Positions 13,326 to 54,401 are shown, counted from the stretch's first letter. The stretch: 64,000 nucleotides of DNA from Coriobacteriia bacterium (GCA_009777935.1 WRKU01000005.1:4102-68101), one strand, 5' to 3'. The notes: a model not told the origin generated them from the sequence alone. Program-made: numbers and translations.

Positions 13326-14693
13326 ATGCTCGATCGTTTTTTTCATATTACTGCGCGTGGCTCAACGATATCGACTGAGTTACTTGCGGGGCTCACCACG
13401 TTTTTAACGATGGTCTATATCGTGTTCGTGAACCCAACGATTCTCAGTAACTTTGGAGGTGCTCTGCAGGCCGAACAGGGTGCGCCCTGGGAGGGCGTCT
13501 TCATTGCGACCTGCATTATCTCGGCGGTATTCACGCTGTTGATGGGGCTTGTGGCCAACCGTCCGGTTGCGATGAGTGTGGCGCTGGGACTCAATGCGGT
13601 CGTCGCATTTGGCATCGTGCTCGGCATGGGCTATCCCTGGCAGGTGGGGATGGCCGTCTGCATGCTTGCCGGTCTGGCCTCGATTGTGCTGATGGCAACG
13701 GGGATACGCACACGCATCATGGATGCGATACCACTGACATTACGTCGCGCGATGGGTGCCGGCATTGGCCTCTTCATCGCCTTCATTGGCCTGCAAAATG
13801 GAGGTGTTGTCGTCCACGATGAGGGCACGCTCCTTGCGCTTGGCCCGCTGAGTAGTCCCGGGGTTATCGTTGCGCTCGTCAGCATTGCAGCAATCGTACT
13901 CCTGTCGGTGCTCAAGGTGCGTGGCGCGTTTTTGATCGGCATTGCGATTGCGACAGCTACCGCGTTTTTGTGTGGTATTGGGGAGCTACCGACCTCAATC
14001 GCGCAGATCCCGTCACTCGATACCGCCTTTACGACGTTTGGGGCGCCGTTTCAACTCGTTGAAGAGGGTACGCTCGCCGTCGTTGTCGTCATCACGAATC
14101 TCTCGCTTATGCTGATGGTCTTTTCGTTTCTGATGGTCGATCTCTTTGAGACGACCGGCACGCTCGTTGCGGTGGGCGAGGAAGCCGGCTTTGTCCACGA
14201 GGATGGCACGATCGAGGACGCCAAAAAGATGTTTTGGATTGACTCGATCGGTTCGTTCTCAGGTGGACTCGTCGGGTCGAGCACCCTAACCTGTTACGTT
14301 GAATCGGGCGCCGGTATCGCCGAGGGCGGCCGCACCGGACTTTCTAACATAGTGGTGAGCGTAGGCTTTGTGTTGACGATACTCTTCATGCCGATTGCCG
14401 GTATGGTGCCGGCAGAGGCGACGGCCGGTGCGCTTGTGATGGTGGGGCTTCTGATGTGTCAGTCCGTCGCATTCATCGATTGGTTCGACCTGGAGACGGC
14501 CGCACCGGCATTTCTCATGATGATTATGATTCCATTGACGAGCAGCATTGCCGTTGGTATCGGGCTTGGTGTGGTGGCACACGTGGCTATCAAGGCGTTT
14601 CGAGGCAAAGCGCGTGAGGTGCACGGGATACTCTGGTGTGTCGCCGCTGCGTACTTGTTACTGTTTATCCTGATGGGCCTCGGGCTTGTATAA
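13326..14693 (+). CDS. NCS2/AzgA-family purine (adenine/guanine/hypoxanthine) permease
   Basis: About 455 aa polytopic protein with the F.I..RGST...E..AG.TTF.TM.YI..VNP N-terminus typical of PbuG/AzgA permeases. Confidence 0.85.
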   Translation: MLDRFFHITARGSTISTELLAGLTTFLTMVYIVFVNPTILSNFGGALQAEQGAPWEGVFIATCIISAVFTLLMGLVANRPVAMSVALGLNAVVAFGIVLGMGYPWQVGMAVCMLAGLASIVLMATGIRTRIMDAIPLTLRRAMGAGIGLFIAFIGLQNGGVVVHDEGTLLALGPLSSPGVIVALVSIAAIVLLSVLKVRGAFLIGIAIATATAFLCGIGELPTSIAQIPSLDTAFTTFGAPFQLVEEGTLAVVVVITNLSLMLMVFSFLMVDLFETTGTLVAVGEEAGFVHEDGTIEDAKKMFWIDSIGSFSGGLVGSSTLTCYVESGAGIAEGGRTGLSNIVVSVGFVLTILFMPIAGMVPAEATAGALVMVGLLMCQSVAFIDWFDLETAAPAFLMMIMIPLTSSIAVGIGLGVVAHVAIKAFRGKAREVHGILWCVAAAYLLLFILMGLGLV

Positions 14694-24006: not shown

Positions 24007-24083
<77 letters not shown>

Positions 24084-24157: not shown

Positions 24158-24168
24158 TGTGTTATACT
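24158..24168 (+). promoter_or_regulatory. Putative extended -10 promoter (TGT-TATACT) for the riboswitch-led operon
   Basis: TGTTATACT lies just upstream of the riboswitch. The -35 is weak. Confidence 0.35.
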
Positions 24169-24171
24169 CGG

Positions 24172-24405
24172 ACCCACAAGAGAGGACATCTCGGTCAAGG
24201 GAAGTCGGGTGTAAGTCCCGTGCGGTACCGCCACTGTGATGCGGCTCAGAACTATCAGGAGCCGCTAAGCCAGAGAACTTGTCGAGAAACGTGTTGCACA
24301 GGCAGCGAGTTACTGTAGGTGCGGCTTGGGGACCGGTGTCAAATGGTTCCCAACTTATGAAGTAGCAAAAACGGGCTGCGTATCTTTCGAGGTGCGCAGT
24401 TTTTT
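24172..24405 (+). promoter_or_regulatory. Cobalamin (adenosylcobalamin-type) riboswitch with terminator expression platform
   Basis: Conserved core GGTCAAGGGAAGTCGGGTGTAAGTCCCGTGCGGTACCGCCACTGT, hairpin GCGGCTC...GAGCCGC and B12 box AAGCCAGAGAAC. This is followed by CTGCG...CGCAG + TTTTTT. Confidence 0.8.
24376..24405 (+). terminator. Candidate riboswitch-controlled intrinsic terminator
   Basis: CTGCG(24376-80)/CGCAG(24395-99) stem followed by T6. The stem is short and the loop long, hence moderate confidence. Confidence 0.45.
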
Positions 24406-24473
24406 GTTGACACGGTCTTCTGCTTGGCGTCAGGTACCCGCTAGGGTACAACGGAAACGACAGGAGGAAGACT

Positions 24474-26705
24474 ATGGAATTCGACTGCAGGAAAAACCGT
24501 CGCAAAAAAACTACGGCACTTATGATTATGCTGGTGTTCTGCATAAGCCTATTGCCCTATGGAGCATGGACCGAAGTGGCCGTTGCGGGTTCGGGCGATG
24601 GTGAAGCCACACTTACCATCGTATTTGGTCTCGGTCTCGACGGATCACCCGACGTAGCGGTCAACAAAACCTATAGCTTTGAGGAAGGTGCCACGATTGA
24701 GGATTTGCTCGATGCAGCGGTTGTCGCCGGCGACCTTACCGGCTACGCACTTGACAGTGGCGGGTTTCCTCACTACTTCACCAAAACAGGAGGCACTACG
24801 CTCCAAAATGCCAGTAATTTTGCTACTTATTGGGCAACCTTTATCGATGGTGGTTATTTTACCGGCTCGGGCAATCTGAGGACAATAAAACTCGTCGATG
24901 GTTCTGCTTATCAGTTTGCTTGGGATAGTTTCCCGACGGCCACCGCGCCCAGCTGGAATTTGCTCGACCCACCCGATATTGATATCTGGGATGTTGTAGG
25001 CGGTGGAGCAGCGGTAGGGCGCGCGACTGCCACAGTCGTCTACGGTATCGACAGCACCGATATGCCCATGTTTGCCGGTCCTGGCCTGCCTATCGTAATC
25101 ACTAACATAAGCTACGAATTCTCTGACGGTGCAACAGTCGCCGACTTCTTTGAGCTACTCGAAGAAGACGGAGAAATCAACAGCTATACGTTTGACAGCA
25201 ACGGATATCTCAGTTCGCTATCGTTTTATGGGGGCATATTCTCTGCCACCAATGCTGCTGATTTTTCGACTTATTGGTCAACGTACGTTAACGGTGATTA
25301 CTTCGGCGGCGGTACCGGGGGTATTGAGGCAACAGAACTTCAGGATGGATACGTCTACCAGTTTGCCTGGGAGAGCTTCCCCACCGCCACTCCCCCTCAA
25401 TGGAACACGATCCCCGCACCTACTCCTGGTGGTGGCAGCGCGCATGGTGGCACGGGTGGTTTACCGGATACGCCACCTGCCTCTCTACCTGGTAGTGCTC
25501 AAGCGACGTTCAACACCTTGCTTGCCAACATCTCGACACGTTTTGCCTATACCGGTGATGACTGGAAAGCACTGAGCATGGCGGCCATCGGCAACGCCGA
25601 TGCTGTTAACCAAAACGCTATCATCGCTAACGCCGTTGCGGCCTATAATGACCCGGATGCCACCAATCTCCAACGCAGTATTCTCGCGGTCACGGCGCTC
25701 GGTATCGATGCTAGGAACGTCGTGAGTGACAACACCAGCTATAATCTCATCGAGGCACTTGCTAACTCAAGTACATCCTTCAGTGGCCCGAATGCACAAA
25801 TGTTTGCGCTACTTGCCTACGCCAGCGGCCCCTATGTGCCATCGGTAACGAGCAATCCCGGAGTTGAAGAACTCATTGACAATATTCTCGCCGCCCAGAA
25901 CACTGACGGTGGTTGGACGTGGTTCGGGAGCACCTCTGATGTCGATATGACTGCGATGGGAATTTTGGCTCTCGAGCCGTATCGCGCGGACGATCCACGC
26001 ATAGAAGAGGCAATTCAGACGGCGCTTGTTACCCTCTATGACATGCAGGCCGAACATGGTGGTTTTGAGTCGATGTGGAATCCCGGCGAGATTGATGTGA
26101 GCTCAACAGCGATGGCCATCATCGCACTCTCGGCCATCGGTGTCGATACGCAGTCATGGGTAGTCGGTGCAGGTGCGCACCTACCCACCTGTCCTCACCG
26201 CGCTCCGGAACATTCGCTCGTCGCTGCACTCGACGCAGCCTTCGAGGCGATGCGCTCGACCATACAGATCTCGGTCGCCGGTGCGAGTACCGGCGCACAG
26301 ACACCACTCAGTGCGCTGCTCTCCCAGGCAAACACCTCACTAACCGGTTTTCTCTTCAACGGTGCGACGAACGATATGGCAACCGAGCAAGGCTTTCTTG
26401 CCCTCGTTTCTTATCAGGGCTTTCTGAACACCGGTCAGCCCTTCAACATCTACACGCAGGCACGTTCGGGTGCGGCAACGTTTCCCATAAACGTCACGAC
26501 CGATACGACCAATACCATCGTTGTCGAGAGCGCGGTGCTTGATGTCGACAGCTCGAACGGCGTGAACCCTGTGACGGGTGACAACCTGCTGCCTCTCATG
26601 ATGGCGCTGCTCGTTCTTGCGATTGGCTCATCGTTTCTGGTAGCGGGCACGGCGCGTCGTACCGCCCTGCACCCTCTCGGACAGAGAGAACACGGAGACA
26701 TCTGA
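24474..26705 (+). CDS. Secreted, probably wall- or membrane-anchored protein: 2x DUF4430-like beta domains + prenyltransferase/terpene-cyclase-like alpha/alpha toroid; putative surface cobalamin-binding protein
   Basis: AGGAGGAAG RBS and signal peptide. Two about 125-aa repeats end in Q(F)AW(D/E)SFPTAT.P.WN. Toroid repeats include QNTDGGWTW, QAEHGGFES and DVSSTAMAIIAL. The C-terminus has NPVTG, a hydrophobic helix and ARR. It is the first gene after a B12 riboswitch. Confidence 0.75.
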   Translation: MEFDCRKNRRKKTTALMIMLVFCISLLPYGAWTEVAVAGSGDGEATLTIVFGLGLDGSPDVAVNKTYSFEEGATIEDLLDAAVVAGDLTGYALDSGGFPHYFTKTGGTTLQNASNFATYWATFIDGGYFTGSGNLRTIKLVDGSAYQFAWDSFPTATAPSWNLLDPPDIDIWDVVGGGAAVGRATATVVYGIDSTDMPMFAGPGLPIVITNISYEFSDGATVADFFELLEEDGEINSYTFDSNGYLSSLSFYGGIFSATNAADFSTYWSTYVNGDYFGGGTGGIEATELQDGYVYQFAWESFPTATPPQWNTIPAPTPGGGSAHGGTGGLPDTPPASLPGSAQATFNTLLANISTRFAYTGDDWKALSMAAIGNADAVNQNAIIANAVAAYNDPDATNLQRSILAVTALGIDARNVVSDNTSYNLIEALANSSTSFSGPNAQMFALLAYASGPYVPSVTSNPGVEELIDNILAAQNTDGGWTWFGSTSDVDMTAMGILALEPYRADDPRIEEAIQTALVTLYDMQAEHGGFESMWNPGEIDVSSTAMAIIALSAIGVDTQSWVVGAGAHLPTCPHRAPEHSLVAALDAAFEAMRSTIQISVAGASTGAQTPLSALLSQANTSLTGFLFNGATNDMATEQGFLALVSYQGFLNTGQPFNIYTQARSGAATFPINVTTDTTNTIVVESAVLDVDSSNGVNPVTGDNLLPLMMALLVLAIGSSFLVAGTARRTALHPLGQREHGDI

Positions 26706-27457
26706 TGCGTGCGCCTATCGAAACCCTAAAAGCATCCTTTGCGCCCGAACGCCGAAAGTACACGCTCTTCATCTTGGGACTTGTGCTTCTTTTGGTATGC
26801 TTCGCGTTGCTCGGCGTTACGAGTACCTTTCAGCGGCGTGCCGAAGCACACAATCGAGCGCAGGAAGCCGCTGAACGTCACAAACAGGAAGTACGTAATC
26901 GCGCAAAGGAAGATATATCGGCCGTTGACTCAGACGAAGAAGGTATGCATCCCGATTCTTCGGCAGACGAGATGGCCGATAGTTCAGCCGACAGCGCACG
27001 TAGCTCGCATGTTGACGGCAGTCGTGGTGCTTCGGCCTCGGGCGGCAGTGCGCCAGATACGGCCAGCGGCACTACACCGTCCGGTGGTGGCGACTCCGCT
27101 TCGGCCTCGGGCGCTTCGTCTGCTCCCCCACCGGCACCGGCAACTATTACCGTCTCAGTGACCGTCGACGGCTCTCGTGCGGCGGGCTATTCTGCCACGA
27201 TGGTCTCCCAGTCGGTTACGATACGGCAAGGGGCATCGGTCTACGATGCACTTGCCGCAACGGGTATCGCGGTCGGCTGGTCAAGTGGCTATGTACGTGC
27301 TATCGGAGGCCTTGCCGAGTTCCAGTTTGGTGCAGGCAGCGGCTGGGTATACTTCGTCAACGGTTCGCGTCCGGGTATCGGTGCGGGATCATATATCCTT
27401 CATGGAGGCGAGAGTATTCGATGGGTCTATACGCTCGACTTCGGAAACGACCTGTAG
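26705..27457 (+). CDS. Membrane-tethered DUF4430 domain protein (putative cobalamin-binding)
   Basis: N-terminal TM anchor, about 90-aa Ser/Ala/Gly/Asp-rich linker, and a C-terminal DUF4430 pattern (ITVSVTVDG...YDAL...GYVRAIGGL.E...G..SGWVYFVNG...G.GAGSY.L..GE.I.W.YT.D.G.DL). Its ATG overlaps the upstream TGA (TGATG). Confidence 0.8.
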   Translation: MRAPIETLKASFAPERRKYTLFILGLVLLLVCFALLGVTSTFQRRAEAHNRAQEAAERHKQEVRNRAKEDISAVDSDEEGMHPDSSADEMADSSADSARSSHVDGSRGASASGGSAPDTASGTTPSGGGDSASASGASSAPPPAPATITVSVTVDGSRAAGYSATMVSQSVTIRQGASVYDALAATGIAVGWSSGYVRAIGGLAEFQFGAGSGWVYFVNGSRPGIGAGSYILHGGESIRWVYTLDFGNDL

Positions 27458-27470
27458 AAGCTACATCTCC

Positions 27471-28235
27471 ATGATGCTCCTCGGCGAAAAAAAGTGTGTA
27501 CCGTATCTCTTCGATGCCGTTCACCCAACGGTTCTGTTTGGCTCCTTTGCGGCGGTCATCGTCCTCACTATGGCGACGATGAACCTGCTCCTCTTGCTCG
27601 TCTCCTTTGCAGGGGCACTCGCACTGAGCGTATGGGTGCGCGGGTGGCGCGCCACCGGTACGACACTGGTCTGGCAGATTCCGCTCGTCGTACTTTGCGC
27701 TGTCATTAACCCTCTGTTCGCCTCGACCGGATCCATCGAACTCTTTCGTATTGGTACGAAGGCAATATATCTTGAAAGCGTGGTGACAGGTGCGGCGACG
27801 GGGCTTATGCTCGTCTCAATCATGCTGTGGTTCTCTCTTGCGAGCCAGATACTCACCTCAGATAAGATACTAACGATTATCGGAAAACGAATGCCTACCA
27901 TGGGGCTGATAATTTCCATGACGCTGCGTCTCGTCCCCCGGCTCGTCGAGCGCGGCAGGCATATCGACAGTGCGGTGCGGGCTACCACTGTGATAACACC
28001 GCGCACCATCATCGAGCGAATCGCCGCACGGCTACGTATTGTTTCGGTCCTCATGGGATGGAGTATGGAGGACTCGCTTGAGACGGCCGACGCTATGCGC
28101 GCGCGCGGATGGGGCGCTGTACCGTACCGAACGAGCTATCGGCCCTATCGATTTCGTATATTCGATGCGGCAATCGGTATCGCCATACTGGCCATACTCA
28201 TCACACTCGTTGTTCTGATAAGAGGGATATCGTGA
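27471..28235 (+). CDS. ecfT: ECF transporter transmembrane (T) component, CbiQ/EcfT family
   Basis: Polytopic protein with the C-terminal coupling motif (LETADAMRARGW). The start is uncertain because there is no clear RBS. Confidence 0.8.
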   Translation: MMLLGEKKCVPYLFDAVHPTVLFGSFAAVIVLTMATMNLLLLLVSFAGALALSVWVRGWRATGTTLVWQIPLVVLCAVINPLFASTGSIELFRIGTKAIYLESVVTGAATGLMLVSIMLWFSLASQILTSDKILTIIGKRMPTMGLIISMTLRLVPRLVERGRHIDSAVRATTVITPRTIIERIAARLRIVSVLMGWSMEDSLETADAMRARGWGAVPYRTSYRPYRFRIFDAAIGIAILAILITLVVLIRGIS

Positions 28236-28948
28236 GCACATCAAATATCTCGTATACAGCGGCGCCAATCGCACTCCGCTTTGTCGACTTCAGTTTCTCC
28301 TATCCGGAAAACGCTGCATTATTCTCTGATGTTTCGTTTACCCTCGCATCCGGCTCGTTCACCGTCCTGATTGGGGCGACCGGAAGTGGCAAGACGACGC
28401 TTCTGCGCTCGTGCAAGCCAGAACTAGCACCCGCCGGGAACCATACCGGAACAATCGAAGTCTTTGGGCGCGCCTGTGCTGATTTTGATACCGCCACATC
28501 GGCAACGTTGATTGGCTACGTCTCGCAAAGTCCTGAAAACCAAATCGTGTGCGATACCGTATGGGCTGAACTCGCCTTCGGTCTGGAGAATCTTGGTGTC
28601 GCACCCGATGCTATGCGCCGTCGCATCGCTGAAGTGGCATACTTTTTCGGTATCGAATCGTTGATGCATACACCGACGGCTCAACTTTCAGGAGGACAGA
28701 AACAGGTGCTGACGCTCGCCAGTGTGCTTGTGATGCAGCCACGGCTTTTGCTACTCGACGAGCCAACGGCGCAGCTCGATCCTATCGCCGAGAAAAACTT
28801 CCTGCATGCGCTCTTCCGCATCAATCGTGAGCTCAACATTACCATCCTTGTGGCGACTCACTCCCCCGGAGCGATGGCTGACTACGCAACCGGCATGTTA
28901 CGTCTGGAAGGAGGATGCCTTGAGCATGAGCACCTTGATGTCAAATAA
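28232..28948 (+). CDS. ecfA: ECF transporter ATPase component A
   Basis: Walker A GATGSGKTT, signature LSGGQKQ, Walker B LLLLDEPT. The GTG overlaps the ecfT stop (GTGA). Confidence 0.88.
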   Translation: MSTSNISYTAAPIALRFVDFSFSYPENAALFSDVSFTLASGSFTVLIGATGSGKTTLLRSCKPELAPAGNHTGTIEVFGRACADFDTATSATLIGYVSQSPENQIVCDTVWAELAFGLENLGVAPDAMRRRIAEVAYFFGIESLMHTPTAQLSGGQKQVLTLASVLVMQPRLLLLDEPTAQLDPIAEKNFLHALFRINRELNITILVATHSPGAMADYATGMLRLEGGCLEHEHLDVK

Positions 28949-29615
28949 ACGACCATCCTGTGTCGTCTCTTTGCGCGACGTCTGGGTGCGCTATGGCTCC
29001 GATGAGCCTTGGATACTGCGTGGTACCGATCTTGACGTAACACCTGCCACTATTCATGCTATCATCGGTGGAAACGGTTCGGGAAAGTCAACTCTCCTTC
29101 ATGCGATTGCCGGCACACTCAAGACGCAACGAGGCAAGATTGAAAACCGCCTTGCGTCGACACAGGCACTCTTACCACAAAGTCCAAAGGCCTTGTTCGT
29201 GTGCGATACGGTCAGGGAAGAATTGCAAGAATGGCAACGGCGATGTGGTTACCATGACAGCGAAGTCGCTGACATGACGGCACGCTTTAATCTTGGAACA
29301 CTAGGGGAACGTCATCCCTACGATCTGAGCGGAGGCCAGCAGCAAAAACTTGCGCTGGCAAAACTTCTCCTTACGCAACCAACCTTACTCTTGCTCGATG
29401 AGCCCACGAAAGGACTCGATGCCGCCTCCAAAGAAGACCTTGCGCGTACGTTACTGATTCTCCGGGAAGTGAAGGTGACGATGGTTCTTGTCACCCATGA
29501 CCTTCCCTTCGTCTCCACCGTTGCCGACACCGCGACGATGCTCTTTGATGGACAGGCGGTCTGCACAGAGCCAACGGCGGACTTTTTTGCCCATAACATC
29601 TTCTATCGGTTCTGA
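28926..29615 (+). CDS. ECF transporter ATPase component A'
   Basis: Walker A GGNGSGKST, signature LSGGQQQK, Walker B LLLLDEPT. It overlaps the preceding ATPase gene. Confidence 0.88.
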   Translation: MSTLMSNKRPSCVVSLRDVWVRYGSDEPWILRGTDLDVTPATIHAIIGGNGSGKSTLLHAIAGTLKTQRGKIENRLASTQALLPQSPKALFVCDTVREELQEWQRRCGYHDSEVADMTARFNLGTLGERHPYDLSGGQQQKLALAKLLLTQPTLLLLDEPTKGLDAASKEDLARTLLILREVKVTMVLVTHDLPFVSTVADTATMLFDGQAVCTEPTADFFAHNIFYRF

Positions 29616-29618
29616 GGT

Positions 29619-30311
29619 GTGACCGTGAAAAAACTCTTAACGCTCCTTGAGGTTCCTCTGCTCCTCGCCGTGCCGCTCACCCTGATTGTCTGTGCTTTCT
29701 TTCAGGTGACGCAGACGGCGTTGCTCACTCTGCTTGTTACGAGTATCGTGCTTGTATTGTTTTGTACGGGATTTGAGATGAGCCGCCCCCCTTTGCGTCA
29801 GATTATGCCGACGATTGTTCTGGCTGCTCTGGCCGCCGCCGGCCGCATATTGTTCGTGATGGTTCCTAATTTCAAGCCGGTCTCGGCGATATGCATCGTT
29901 GCGGGGGTCGTTTTTGGCCGACGTACAGGCTTTATGGTTGGCGCGTTGGCTGCGCTTATCTCAAACTTTTTCTTCGGACACGGACCCTGGACACCGTGGC
30001 AGATGTATGCGTGGGGCACCGTCGGTTATCTTGCGGGTCTCTTTGCCGAACACGAACTCTTTAAGCACACGGTTGTGCTCTATCTCTATGGATTCGTGTC
30101 GGCGTTCCTCTATGGATTGCTCCTAAATACCTGGTATATCGTTGGGTTCATACATCCGCTCACGTGGCAAAGCGCACTCATTGCTTACGGAGCTTCGTTG
30201 CCGTTCGACCTCTTACAAGGCATCGCAACCGTCATCTTCTTGCTGCTCATCTTTGCCCCTTGGCAACGAAAGCTCAAGCGTATCAAAACAAAATACGAGC
30301 TCATCGCATAG
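29619..30311 (+). CDS. ECF transporter substrate-specific (S) component, candidate cobalamin-specific (CbrT-like by context)
   Basis: About 230-aa, 6-7 TM protein with NFKPV....I.AG..FG...GF.VGAL.ALISNFFFG.GPWTPWQM.AWG. It is the last gene of the riboswitch-led ECF operon. Confidence 0.7.
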   Translation: MTVKKLLTLLEVPLLLAVPLTLIVCAFFQVTQTALLTLLVTSIVLVLFCTGFEMSRPPLRQIMPTIVLAALAAAGRILFVMVPNFKPVSAICIVAGVVFGRRTGFMVGALAALISNFFFGHGPWTPWQMYAWGTVGYLAGLFAEHELFKHTVVLYLYGFVSAFLYGLLLNTWYIVGFIHPLTWQSALIAYGASLPFDLLQGIATVIFLLLIFAPWQRKLKRIKTKYELIA

Positions 30312-30314
30312 AAC

Positions 30315-30980
30315 CTATTTCTTCCGAGATCTGCCTCGCAACGTGCGCAACGTCGGCGTATCGGGTGGTGGCGCCAGCATGAATCTTTTGGCGCGCGTCG
30401 CCAAGGCAGCACCAGTCGGTGTGGTCCACTCCCCGTCCGTAATGCGACTCGCTGATGCTTCCGGAAGATCGAATCTATCGACGATATACTGTGTCGCCGG
30501 AGTCGGCACCGAAAGCTTTCCGTGTGAACAGCGCACCGTGCCGCGTCCGAGCACCAGTGGAGACGCAAACCACTCTCGTGCACCAAGCTCCTCAAGTGCA
30601 GTAAATATCCCCATCACACGCGCCACATTTGCTATGCGGCCAATCTCGTGGAAGTGTATATCAACGATGTTCGTATCGTGTGCGACAGCCTCGGCATCGG
30701 CAATCGCAGAAAAGACGGCATGGGCTTCATAGCGCACGTATTCGCTGTCGGCACACTCATCTAAGATGCGTCGCACTTCACGATACGAACGGGTCATGGC
30801 GCCGGACGAGGTGTGATCAGGGTACTGCTCGATAACCGTTGCGACAAGCGTGTCGTTCACGACCTCGGGATACACCACTCGTAATGCATCGAGGAACTTC
30901 TCACTCGTCAAGCCATTCTCGCAATCAAGCCAGAAGAGTGGCTTGATGCCAACTGCCGTTTCGTCAACGTGGCCAACCAT
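30315..30980 (-). CDS. LarC/DUF111-family N-terminal domain-only protein (degenerate)
   Basis: HFHEIG, SPLVLGRGTVRCSHGKLSVPTPAT and TPTGAAL match the LarC N-domain. The N-terminal SGISGDM motif is replaced (NGLTSEKF) and the C-terminal domain is absent. Confidence 0.6.
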   Translation of the reverse strand: MVGHVDETAVGIKPLFWLDCENGLTSEKFLDALRVVYPEVVNDTLVATVIEQYPDHTSSGAMTRSYREVRRILDECADSEYVRYEAHAVFSAIADAEAVAHDTNIVDIHFHEIGRIANVARVMGIFTALEELGAREWFASPLVLGRGTVRCSHGKLSVPTPATQYIVDRFDLPEASASRITDGEWTTPTGAALATRAKRFMLAPPPDTPTLRTLRGRSRKK

Positions 30981-52541: not shown

Positions 52542-52568
52542 AGTGGTTTCCTTTCTCTTGTGAGCGGT

Positions 52569-53384
52569 CTATTCGGTGACCGGGGTCTCTTCGATAAGCG
52601 CCTCTTTGGCCACAACTTCTTCGGCCGTTGGCGCTTCGCTATCCGTAACGGTTGGCGCAGGCGCTTCCTGCTCTGCAGGCTGCTGTCCCTTGTTGAGCGT
52701 AATTCCCCCGTTGCCTTCAAGTACACCCGATGCGATGACATCGGCTACGAGCGCGATTGCACGAATCGCATCATCGTTGGTCGGAATCGGGTACTCGACC
52801 TCATCGGGATCGGCGTTCGTATCGAGCATCCCGATAATCGGGATGTTAAGGCGACGTGCCTCATTGACGGCATTAATCTCGCGTTTGGTATCGACGACAA
52901 ACAGCGCCGCCGGCTTACTGTTCATGTCACGGATGCCGTCGAGGTTCATCTGCAGCTTGGCAAGTTCCTTACCCTTAAGGATCTGTTCCTTTTTAGGAAA
53001 GGTCGCCATCGTACCGTCCTCGATCATCTGCTCAAGTCTTTGCATATGGGTAACGCGTGCGCGAATGGTATCCCAGTTGGTGAGCATACCGCCAAGCCAC
53101 CGATTCGTCACGTACGGCATGCCGGCACGCGTCGCAGCACGTTCGAGTGGCTCCTGAGCCTGTTTCTTTGTGCCAACAAAGAGTATCTCACCGCCGCGCT
53201 GGCCAACGGTACAGGCAAAATTATATGCCTTTTCCAGTTCGGCAAGGGTTTGTTTGAGATCGATAATATGGATGCCGCCGCGCTGAGCAAAGATATACGG
53301 CTCCATCTTCGGGTTCCATCGACGGGTCTGATGCCCAAAGTGAACACCTGCTTCGAGCAGGTTTTGCATGGTAACAGTTGCCAT
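52569..53384 (-). CDS. rpsB: 30S ribosomal protein S2
   Basis: LLEAGVHFGHQTRRWNPKM. ATG 53384 follows AAGGAAGG. Confidence 0.96.
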   Translation of the reverse strand: MATVTMQNLLEAGVHFGHQTRRWNPKMEPYIFAQRGGIHIIDLKQTLAELEKAYNFACTVGQRGGEILFVGTKKQAQEPLERAATRAGMPYVTNRWLGGMLTNWDTIRARVTHMQRLEQMIEDGTMATFPKKEQILKGKELAKLQMNLDGIRDMNSKPAALFVVDTKREINAVNEARRLNIPIIGMLDTNADPDEVEYPIPTNDDAIRAIALVADVIASGVLEGNGGITLNKGQQPAEQEAPAPTVTDSEAPTAEEVVAKEALIEETPVTE

Positions 53385-53525
53385 TATGGCCTTCCTTTCG
53401 GTTCCGCTTCTGGGTACTTCATCCCTTCGCACCACCCGCTGTCTCGCAGGCACCAAGGCGCTCCGGTCCACACCCATGTAGATTAATGTGACCCAGCCAT
53501 GATAGCACAGATTATATCTGAGTGC

Positions 53526-54401
53526 TCAGGCTCGAGGATGAGTTCTCTTGTGAACTTCTTTCAGATGAGCAGCGCTAATGTGAGTATATATCTGCGTTGT
53601 TGAAAGGTTTGCGTGACCGAGCAACTCCTGCACGCTACGCAGATCTGCCCCACCGGAAAGTAGGTCGGTCGCAAATGAGTGGCGAAACGTATGAGGGCTG
53701 ACAGGTGTCGTAATCCCGGCAGCACGCGCATGCGTCTTTACGATACGTCGAATCGCATCTTCACTTAAGCGATTGCCACGCGTCGAGAGGAAGACTGCCT
53801 GCGATGCCTTGCCTTGCAGCACCTCACGTGCCTGCTTAAGGTAGACATCTACCGCTGCGGCCGCAGCAGGATAGAGCGGAACGAGTCGTTGCTTATTGCC
53901 CTTCCCCTCCAACAGCACCAGGTTATTTTGTAGATCGATGCGGTCAACGTTGAGTCCTGATAGCTCGGCAACGCGTGCGCCGGTCGCGTACATGAGCTCA
54001 AGCAATGCGGCATCGCGCATTCCTTTTGGCGTGCTGTCATCAGGGCTTTCCAACAGCGTAGTGATGTCATCTTGCGTTAACGTTTTCGGCAACGTCCTCC
54101 CTTGCTTAGGCGCCTGTAACAACAGCGCGGGGTTGTCCTCAATCGTTCCCTTTTCGACGAGGTAATCGTAGTAGGTGCGCAACGTCGTCATCGCACGTGC
54201 GATGGTGGCGCGCGCATAGCCGGCTGCAGTCAGCTCGCCCAAGTAGAGTCGTAACTGTCGATGAGTCGCTTCATGCGAACTAATCTCATTGCGCTCACAC
54301 CAACGGGAAAATGCCGTCAGATCGTTGTGATACGCACGACACGAATGTGCTGATAGTCCTCGCACCAGTTCGAGATGACGAATGAATTCATCTACGTGCA
54401 C
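53526..54401 (-). CDS. xerC: Tyrosine recombinase XerC/XerD family (chromosome dimer resolution)
   Basis: Catalytic R..., H.LRHSFAT.LL..GADLR.VQELLGH..L.TTQIYTH. Conserved dprA-xerC-rpsB synteny of Actinobacteria. Confidence 0.88.
   Translation of the reverse strand: MHVDEFIRHLELVRGLSAHSCRAYHNDLTAFSRWCERNEISSHEATHRQLRLYLGELTAAGYARATIARAMTTLRTYYDYLVEKGTIEDNPALLLQAPKQGRTLPKTLTQDDITTLLESPDDSTPKGMRDAALLELMYATGARVAELSGLNVDRIDLQNNLVLLEGKGNKQRLVPLYPAAAAAVDVYLKQAREVLQGKASQAVFLSTRGNRLSEDAIRRIVKTHARAAGITTPVSPHTFRHSFATDLLSGGADLRSVQELLGHANLSTTQIYTHISAAHLKEVHKRTHPRA

Follow-up and report, generated by a model that had tools for sequence, protein, structure and literature searches.

A cobalamin-riboswitch operon of a Coriobacteriia bacterium encoding predicted transcobalamin-like surface proteins and a putative energy-coupling factor importer

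An operon preceded by a cobalamin riboswitch was analysed in a 64,000-nucleotide stretch of DNA from a Coriobacteriia bacterium (GCA_009777935.1, WRKU01000005.1:4102-68101), referred to as the window, and all positions are counted from its first letter. Six genes on the + strand follow the riboswitch and are packed or overlapping. Open reading frame (ORF) 1 (24474-26705, 743 aa) overlaps ORF2 (26705-27457, 250 aa) by ATGA, and a 13-nt gap separates ORF2 from ORF3 (27471-28235, 254 aa). ORF3 shares a GTGA overlap with ORF4 (28232-28948, 238 aa), which in turn overlaps ORF5 (28926-29615, 229 aa) by 23 nt. ORF6, the last gene of the operon, follows after a gap of ~3-9 nt and extends from 29619 or 29625 to 30311 (228-230 aa). 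The ATG of ORF5 at 28926 is preceded by a GGAGG Shine-Dalgarno sequence. An initial annotation, made by a model reading the DNA alone, had proposed this packed six-gene layout, and the gene starts matched the independent calls on a Joint Genome Institute (JGI) metagenome contig with an identical protein, where ORF3-ORF6 were 254, 238, 229 and 228 aa long. The operon is probably a cobalamin-repressed corrinoid uptake system of an Eggerthellales-related bacterium, in which the corrinoid would be captured at the surface and handed over to an energy-coupling factor (ECF) importer of the ECF-CbrT type. This functional reading is well supported because the gene order recurs in 31 of the 80 loci that were compared and because every Eggerthellales locus with upstream DNA carries the riboswitch.

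The whole window was scanned with Rfam at the gathering threshold (GA), and two RNAs were found, a tRNA-Pro(GGG) and an adenosylcobalamin (AdoCbl) riboswitch. The aptamer of the riboswitch lies at 24176-24327 (+) and was matched by RF01482, a family of the cobalamin clan CL00101, with 54.2 bits (GA 50, E 3.6e-7) and with all model positions 1-149 covered. The B12-riboswitch leader was thus correctly anticipated in the initial annotation, although the family named there, RF00174, is a different member of the same clan. A covariance model of our own, built from five Eggerthellales aptamers, matched the leader at 24168-24335 with 154.5 bits. Among 14 orthologous leaders, whose alignment was itself fitted to the model, compensatory changes were observed in 23 of 39 base pairs, and 94.7% of the cells were paired, as against 35-46% in slid controls. 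None of 500 shuffles reached the observed values. The riboswitch is more than a chance match, and it recurs at the orthologous position in 14 loci.

A terminator scan located an intrinsic-terminator-like hairpin with a U-run at 24373-24408 (+), between the aptamer and ORF1. The hairpin itself (24373-24402) has a 13-pair stem followed by TTTTTTGTTG, and it was present in both the minimum-free-energy and the centroid folds of the leader (z = -4.15). It is likely the expression platform, which would work as a transcriptional OFF switch: at low intracellular AdoCbl the leader would read through the terminator and all six genes would be made, and binding of AdoCbl would end transcription at the hairpin. 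The minimum-free-energy and centroid folds, and only these, also paired GGUCUUCUGC with the Shine-Dalgarno region AGGAGGAAGAC (24411-24476, +), and this predicted helix may add translational control; an AGGAGG Shine-Dalgarno sequence lies upstream of the ORF1 ATG at 24474. As for the single promoter that had been claimed, a sigma-70 consensus scan upstream of the riboswitch reported nothing, and what stands of the claim is a candidate extended -10 element, TGTTATACT (24160-24168, +), that was read by eye. This element plausibly fits a transcript start at ~24175-24176, and the consensus scan would have missed it because its -35 region is weak.

For the product of the first gene, ORF1, NCBI has a 100% identical entry under the name 'MAG: terpene cyclase/mutase family protein [Coriobacteriia bacterium]', in which MAG stands for metagenome-assembled genome. 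The protein, encoded on the + strand like all its parts listed here, starts with a signal-peptide-like N-terminus (predicted signal peptide, aa 1-~35), which is followed by a transcobalamin (TC)-beta-like SLBB domain (nt 24600-24992), a second SLBB domain (nt 25017-25436) that is an internal repeat of the first, a G/P linker and an alpha/alpha toroid (nt 25500-26477). The two repeats are ~125 aa each and 38% identical (E 2e-26). The C-terminus presents, in this order, an NPVTG sorting motif (nt 26565-26579), a hydrophobic transmembrane helix (nt ~26589-26666, aa 706-731) and a basic RR tail. Pfam matched the toroid with SQHop_cyclase_N and Prenyltrans, and these two toroid families were all that a scan of ORF1 at E <= 0.01 returned, with no cobalamin-carrier family among them. 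An AlphaFold2 (AF2) model of the whole protein, with a predicted local distance difference test score (pLDDT) of 79.7, showed two beta-rich domains, a helical toroid and a C-terminal transmembrane helix.

To examine the fold of the beta domains, repeat 1 was modelled separately (pLDDT 86.8; predicted template modelling score, pTM, 0.82) and compared with solved structures using Foldseek. Ranks 1-19 consisted exclusively of the beta domains of TC, haptocorrin (HC) and intrinsic factor (IF) together with 3u7z, a DUF4430 crystal structure, at E 1e-4 to 5e-3 and a TM-score of ~0.65 on the target. Generic beta-grasp folds began only after a gap, at E 0.13. On this model, domain 1 is a beta-grasp with a TC-type insert whose nearest structural neighbours are the TC, IF and HC beta domains. 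The whole ORF1 model retrieved class II terpene cyclases, prenyltransferase beta subunits, transcobalamin, intrinsic factor, the isolated TC beta domain and 3u7z. The models and matches predict TC-like folds for all three beta domains of the operon, the third being that of ORF2, and for the toroid, and the earlier suggestion that the extracytoplasmic proteins resemble the two halves of eukaryotic cobalamin carriers holds at the level of the predicted fold. No TC, IF or HC chain was present among the PDB sequence or profile matches of ORF1. Because the likeness exists at the fold level only, ORF1 was not classed as a member of the eukaryotic cobalamin carriers.

The mammalian carriers transcobalamin, intrinsic factor and haptocorrin share both folds with ORF1 by Foldseek, namely an alpha6/alpha6 toroid and a beta-grasp with the TC-specific hairpin. 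The structure-aligned identity is only 10-20%, and ORF1 has the domains in the opposite order, with two copies of the beta domain. ORF1 is also predicted to be covalently anchored to the wall and would deliver to an ECF importer, whereas the mammalian carriers are soluble and deliver to an endocytic receptor. A putative sortase-type signal agrees with the wall anchor proposed in the initial annotation and takes the non-canonical form NPVTG here; in most full-length homologues an LPxTG/LAxTG-like motif, a transmembrane helix and an RR tail occupy the same place. One homologue has ChW repeats instead, and distant Firmicute relatives have SLH domains. Since LPxTG, ChW and SLH alternate among the homologues, the surface-attachment module appears interchangeable around a conserved core. 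The toroid family is large, with 3149 representative clusters at E <= 1e-3 and 1455 at E <= 1e-10. The same toroid is also contained in giant predicted proteins of ~3400-3600 aa (P0050, P0091 and P0104).

The NCBI name raises the alternative that ORF1 is an enzyme whose position next to a B12 ECF importer has nothing to do with corrinoid binding. The SQHop_cyclase_N match is just at the cutoff (26.3 against 26.2), the best PDB sequence matches are drimenyl diphosphate synthases, and class II cyclases are among the top Foldseek results. Against these stand the NCBIfam models TIGR01787 and TIGR01507, which gave 19 and 17 bits with cutoffs of 322 and 431, and the lack of a DxDD motif in ORF1, where only DVDMTA is found. 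The AF2 model contains a single toroid and not a beta-gamma didomain, and the protein is predicted to be secreted, wall-anchored and fused to two TC-beta-like domains, under B12-riboswitch control and with an ECF synteny that is kept in 31 loci. An enzymatic role of this kind is hardly credible, and a terpene cyclase identity was rejected on the missing DxDD, the single toroid and the predicted secretion of the protein. The public name is very likely a misnomer that arose from generic toroid-repeat similarity.

ORF2 encodes a second, membrane-tethered protein. Its N-terminal membrane anchor was located by hydropathy at aa 17-44, and a linker of ~105 aa, rich in A/S/D/G, separates the anchor from a C-terminal TC-beta-like DUF4430 domain (aa 176-243). 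The domain matched PF14478 with 48.5 bits (cutoff 23.8, E 1.2e-12), which is the correct accession for DUF4430 in place of the PF16165 cited earlier. The protein would be oriented outward from the membrane. A membrane-tethered DUF4430 gene occupies the ORF2 position in all related loci, where it always adjoins the T gene.

The remaining four genes form a predicted ECF module. ORF4 and ORF5 matched ABC_tran at 4e-24 and 6.5e-26 (86 and 92 bits), and Walker A and LSGGQ are visible in both. ECF_ATPase_1 and _2 were the best or near-best NCBIfam families for the two proteins, under the equivalog cutoffs in both cases (ORF4 with ECF_ATPase_1, 1e-47). From their sequences ORF4 is an EcfA-type ABC ATPase and ORF5 a second ABC ATPase (EcfA'). 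In all relatives examined (L002, L003, L005, L007, L008 and L009) the ATPases are fused as one gene of 482-553 aa; a natural split or a frameshift could explain why the window has two separate genes that overlap.

ORF6 was matched in Pfam by ECF-ribofla_trS, DUF6580 and ECF_trnsprt, with 47.5 bits for PF07155 (cutoff 26.7) and 44.8 bits for PF20221 (cutoff 27), and no CbrT-specific family was among its Pfam or NCBIfam matches. Its best PDB sequence match was 6fnp_A (CbrT; E 7.6e-10, aa 59-225), and the next, the S component of 4HZU, reached only 1e-3. ORF6 is accordingly annotated as a predicted ECF S component with CbrT as its best solved relative, in agreement with the S component of the initial annotation. 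An N-terminal extension of ~55 aa (29619-29790) contains extra hydrophobic helices and is conserved in relatives, even in the Firmicute locus L009. A cobalt importer of the CbiMNQO type was considered and rejected, given that the Pfam scan of the six proteins contained no CbiM or CbiN family and that the S component resembles CbrT.

Of the six identities, only that of ORF3 did not emerge from Pfam alone. Pfam and NCBIfam gave nothing at E < 0.01, and a phmmer search of the PDB gave nothing; Pfam CbiQ aligned over the full length with E 0.42 and 10.7 bits (cutoff 25). When a profile of ORF3 and seven positional orthologues was compared with the PDB, only EcfT chains were matched, at 2e-11 to 2e-9 (5d3m_D/6fnp at 2e-11, 4huq_T and 4hzu_T). 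Four of the eight orthologues matched CbiQ directly, the best at 2.3e-7 and that of the Firmicute locus L009 among them. The AMRARGW coupling motif of ORF3 is conserved in this eight-member family, and its arginines are invariant. ORF3 is therefore taken, on these profile matches, to be a divergent EcfT, the T component. All six gene identities of the initial annotation were retained: Pfam found the prenyltransferase-like toroid in ORF1, DUF4430 in ORF2, ABC_tran in ORF4 and ORF5 and an ECF S component in ORF6, and EcfT was recovered by the family profile, CbiQ having appeared only below the cutoff. As a separate observation, the EcfT of the window lacks a C-terminal hydrophobic segment of ~50 aa (consensus FYPxMSxLxVWWGYAPYALL...) that is present in all seven aligned relatives, where it lies past the end of canonical EcfT.

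Seven contexts of ORF1 homologues shared the order toroid protein, DUF4430 protein, T, fused double ATPase and S, and a cobalamin-clan riboswitch was upstream in all seven. For a wider comparison, 80 loci were fetched with up to ~6 kb on each side, some of the contigs being cut, and sorted by a hidden Markov model (HMM) pipeline. The complete toroid-DUF4430-T-A-A-S operon was found in 31 loci across Eggerthellales and Clostridia, the operon was cut by a contig end in nine, and the other 40 had the toroid, with or without DUF4430/SLBB, and no ECF genes in the DNA examined. Full-length beta-beta-alpha relatives of ORF1 occurred in Eggerthellales only; the carriers include Raoultibacter massiliensis, Adlercreutzia agrestimuris, 'Bacterium D16-34' and several MAGs. 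Toroid relatives are spread through Clostridia, and the operon type is also present in Clostridium ljungdahlii. The Firmicute versions usually have one alpha-beta fusion in TC order, a second toroid and a separate beta protein. The operon type is common in gut anaerobes.

The co-occurrence of this architecture with B12 riboswitches, which the initial annotation had offered as a check, was confirmed with Rfam in 14 of the 23 complete loci tested, each with a cobalamin riboswitch upstream on the same strand. Our own covariance model matched over its full length in every Eggerthellales locus for which DNA upstream was available; one of these, L010, had escaped Rfam. The model also gave partial core matches upstream of most of the remaining Firmicute operons, several of which were Rfam misses, and riboswitches at these loci are probable. 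Rfam further found a riboswitch in 5 of 11 toroid+SLBB loci without ECF genes.

Some individual loci deserve mention. In L027, L048, L053, L055 and L071, toroid genes (some with SLBB) lie downstream, on the same strand, of cobalamin riboswitches of 54-114 bits and have no adjacent ECF genes; the TC-like proteins of such loci may serve other transporters or work alone. L024 has two serial cobalamin riboswitches (711-902 and 1466-1664) upstream of the operon. In L045 the riboswitch (13657-13777) is immediately downstream of the S gene, and none was detected upstream. Complete Firmicute-style operons were also seen on contigs assigned to Gram-negatives (L040, binned as Bacteroidaceae, and L079, Alloprevotella), and a 'Sutterella' contig (L074) has a toroid+SLBB gene; mis-binning or horizontal transfer could account for these placements.

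Comparative genomics had already predicted operons of this type in 2007. In the bacterial proteins reported by Burroughs et al. (2007; PMC1796856), a TC-like SLBB domain is joined to the N- or C-terminal side of a toroid, and signal peptides and Gram-positive anchors are present; the operons also contain a second paralogous SLBB protein and CbiO/CbiQ-like genes. The host organisms are usually without B12 synthesis, and a role in scavenging of B12 or its precursors was predicted, independently of the present analysis. The window operon has the same SLBB and toroid combination, a predicted signal peptide and Gram-positive anchor, and the same kind of second SLBB protein and CbiO/CbiQ-like neighbours. 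It differs in its host, as the clade of Burroughs et al. comprised low-GC Gram-positives, planctomycetes and euryarchaea and the window belongs to Coriobacteriia (Actinomycetota), and in the tandem SLBB, beta-beta-alpha form of ORF1, which among the loci fetched is confined to Eggerthellales. Their account included neither the riboswitch nor a CbrT-type S component. A comparative genomics study later listed 'CbrUVT' as a B12 ECF transporter (Rodionov et al., 2019; PMC6593275). In view of these two reports and of genetic work on Lactobacillus sakei described below, calling the system largely undescribed, as the initial annotation did, was overstated. The window operon is an actinobacterial, beta-beta-alpha, putatively sortase-anchored case of a widespread and long-predicted operon type.

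For the import module, the closest characterised system is ECF-CbrT of Lactobacillus delbrueckii (PDB 6FNP), a proven importer of B12 and cobinamide whose function and structure have both been studied (Santos et al., 2018; PMC5997447). The window module has homologous S and T components, two ABC ATPases and a cargo class that B12 regulation implies. It is a dedicated, group-I-like module with its genes in the same operon, whereas the L. delbrueckii module is shared with other S components. Its S component has the extra conserved N-terminus of ~55 aa compared with the 182-aa CbrT of 6FNP, its T component is too divergent for Pfam CbiQ, and it is co-transcribed with two extracytoplasmic TC-like proteins, which L. 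delbrueckii ECF-CbrT does without. CbrT itself was reportedly first predicted by Rodionov and co-workers in 2009.

Competition for cobamides shapes gut and other anaerobic communities, and to our knowledge extracellular cobamide capture has been worked out for Bacteroides only. The folds of BtuG and BtuH are not known to be related to those of the window ectoproteins. The logic is analogous, in that BtuG, BtuH and BtuJ provide riboswitch-controlled surface capture of cobamides that feeds a membrane transporter (PMC6143338, PMC8941943, PMC13616437). The Bacteroides proteins are outer-membrane lipoproteins feeding the TonB-dependent BtuB and are characterised biochemically and structurally, and the Gram-positive counterpart is not. 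A 2026 review called Gram-positive extracellular cobamide capture 'entirely uncharacterized' (PMC13616437), in line with the literature searched, and the statement in the initial annotation that a Gram-positive capture layer lacked biochemical characterisation was accurate.

The obtained results suggest how the proposed uptake system might operate. Derepression of the leader would be followed by secretion of ORF1 and, through its putative sortase signal, by covalent attachment to the wall, where its two TC-beta-like SLBB domains and single alpha/alpha toroid would be exposed. If binding follows the example of transcobalamin and intrinsic factor, a corrinoid could be captured at the cell surface by being sandwiched between the toroid and a beta domain. 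The third beta-like domain, the DUF4430 domain of ORF2 on its ~100-residue tether, would most likely shuttle or concentrate the corrinoid between the wall layer and the membrane. There the CbrT-type S component ORF6 would receive it, and the EcfT ORF3 together with the ATPases ORF4 and ORF5 would drive its import with ATP. Corrinoid binding by the ectodomains, the order of hand-over and the use of the terminator as the switch are steps that we infer.

A stricter version of this scheme, which we regard as tentative, is that the three beta-like domains and the toroid form an extracellular relay from ORF1 to ORF2 to CbrT, with paralogous beta domains that would differ in their selectivity for cobamides or precursors. 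Such a relay would be functionally analogous to the mammalian sequence of haptocorrin, intrinsic factor and transcobalamin and to the BtuJ/H/G relay of Bacteroides. If true, it would be the first characterised Gram-positive or actinobacterial corrinoid capture layer, and a living bacterial counterpart of the ancestors proposed for the animal B12 carriers. An unlikely alternative leaves corrinoid import to the ECF module and makes the ectoproteins a surface reservoir, a competitive sequestration layer that would keep corrinoids from neighbours or the host, or selectors among cobamide analogues, with no obligatory relay. It would fit the riboswitch-associated toroid+SLBB loci that have no adjacent ECF genes (5 of 11), the function of L. 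delbrueckii ECF-CbrT without such ectoproteins (PMC5997447), and the presence of the toroid within giant multidomain surface proteins of up to ~3500 aa. This alternative is harder to reconcile with the joint transcription of the ectoprotein genes with T, A, A and S, in which genes are closely packed and often overlap and which is kept across two phyla, and with the constant position of the tethered DUF4430 protein beside the T gene.

A number of results count against the corrinoid uptake system preferred here. Cobalt importers and other non-corrinoid transporters are also found under B12 riboswitches, and for this reason the riboswitch alone leaves the cargo unfixed. No B12-dependent enzyme was among the scanned genes of the window, and no B12 biosynthesis genes were found among them either. 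The literature searched contains no biochemical test of corrinoid binding by these ectoproteins and no binding or transport data for the family. With regard to the folds, the inter-domain arrangement of the ORF1 AF2 model is uncertain (pTM 0.49), and the toroid resembles terpene cyclases and prenyltransferases as well as TC, both in sequence and by Foldseek. The ORF1 repeats stayed below the cutoff of Pfam DUF4430 (PF14478; best 14.8 bits, E 0.039), hhalign compared them with the ORF2 domain at E 0.027 and a probability of 1.8%, and profiles of either beta-domain alignment did not find TC chains among PDB sequences. The anchor motif departs from the canonical sorting signal, and no sortase gene was present among the scanned window genes, no search having been made beyond the window. 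Finally, the operon lsa1836-1840 of L. sakei has been deleted and phenotyped as an 'ECF-like heme uptake system', with heme uptake as its claimed function; less heme was taken up after the deletion, and in docking the heme was positioned between models of the alpha and beta proteins (Verplaetse et al., bioRxiv 10.1101/864751).

This last report leads to the alternative that the cargo is heme or another tetrapyrrole, as for Lsa1836-1840. By its described components the L. sakei operon is like that of the window, with an S component, a fused ATPase, a T component, the TC-beta-like Lsa1839 and the TC-alpha-like Lsa1840 (bioRxiv 10.1101/864751); its alpha and beta parts are separate proteins, and its claimed cargo is heme. 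A cobalamin riboswitch, however, precedes every Eggerthellales orthologue with upstream DNA and probably most of the Firmicute ones, no heme-related genes lie nearby among the scanned window genes, and the L. sakei paper does not mention a riboswitch (bioRxiv 10.1101/864751). A heme cargo for the window operon is very improbable on this evidence, and a corrinoid remains the preferred one. Since the operon occurs in the culturable R. massiliensis, A. agrestimuris and C. ljungdahlii, the B12-scavenging prediction of 2007 can be tested directly. Such tests would also inform the hypothesis that transcobalamin and intrinsic factor originated in bacteria, would put right a misleading database name, and could settle the question of heme or B12 that L. 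sakei raises.

The surroundings of the operon were also inspected. The tRNA-Pro(GGG) (24007-24083, -) is encoded on the other strand and precedes the candidate operon promoter by ~80 nt. The scanned neighbours are housekeeping genes: recA, rny, miaA, miaB, the glycine cleavage genes, nusA-infB-truB/ribF, frr, pyrH, tsf, dxr, ispG and proS. The gene that converges with the operon at its end (30315-30980, -) encodes a 221-aa LarC/Ni_insertion fragment that covers only profile positions 53-204 of 375 and is either a truncated or a split LarC. Further along, at 52560-53486 (+), a 308-aa ORF had no Pfam match at E <= 1e-5; as the sole + strand gene it interrupts a long series of housekeeping genes on the - strand, and it adjoins a XerC/D-type recombinase gene (53526-54401).

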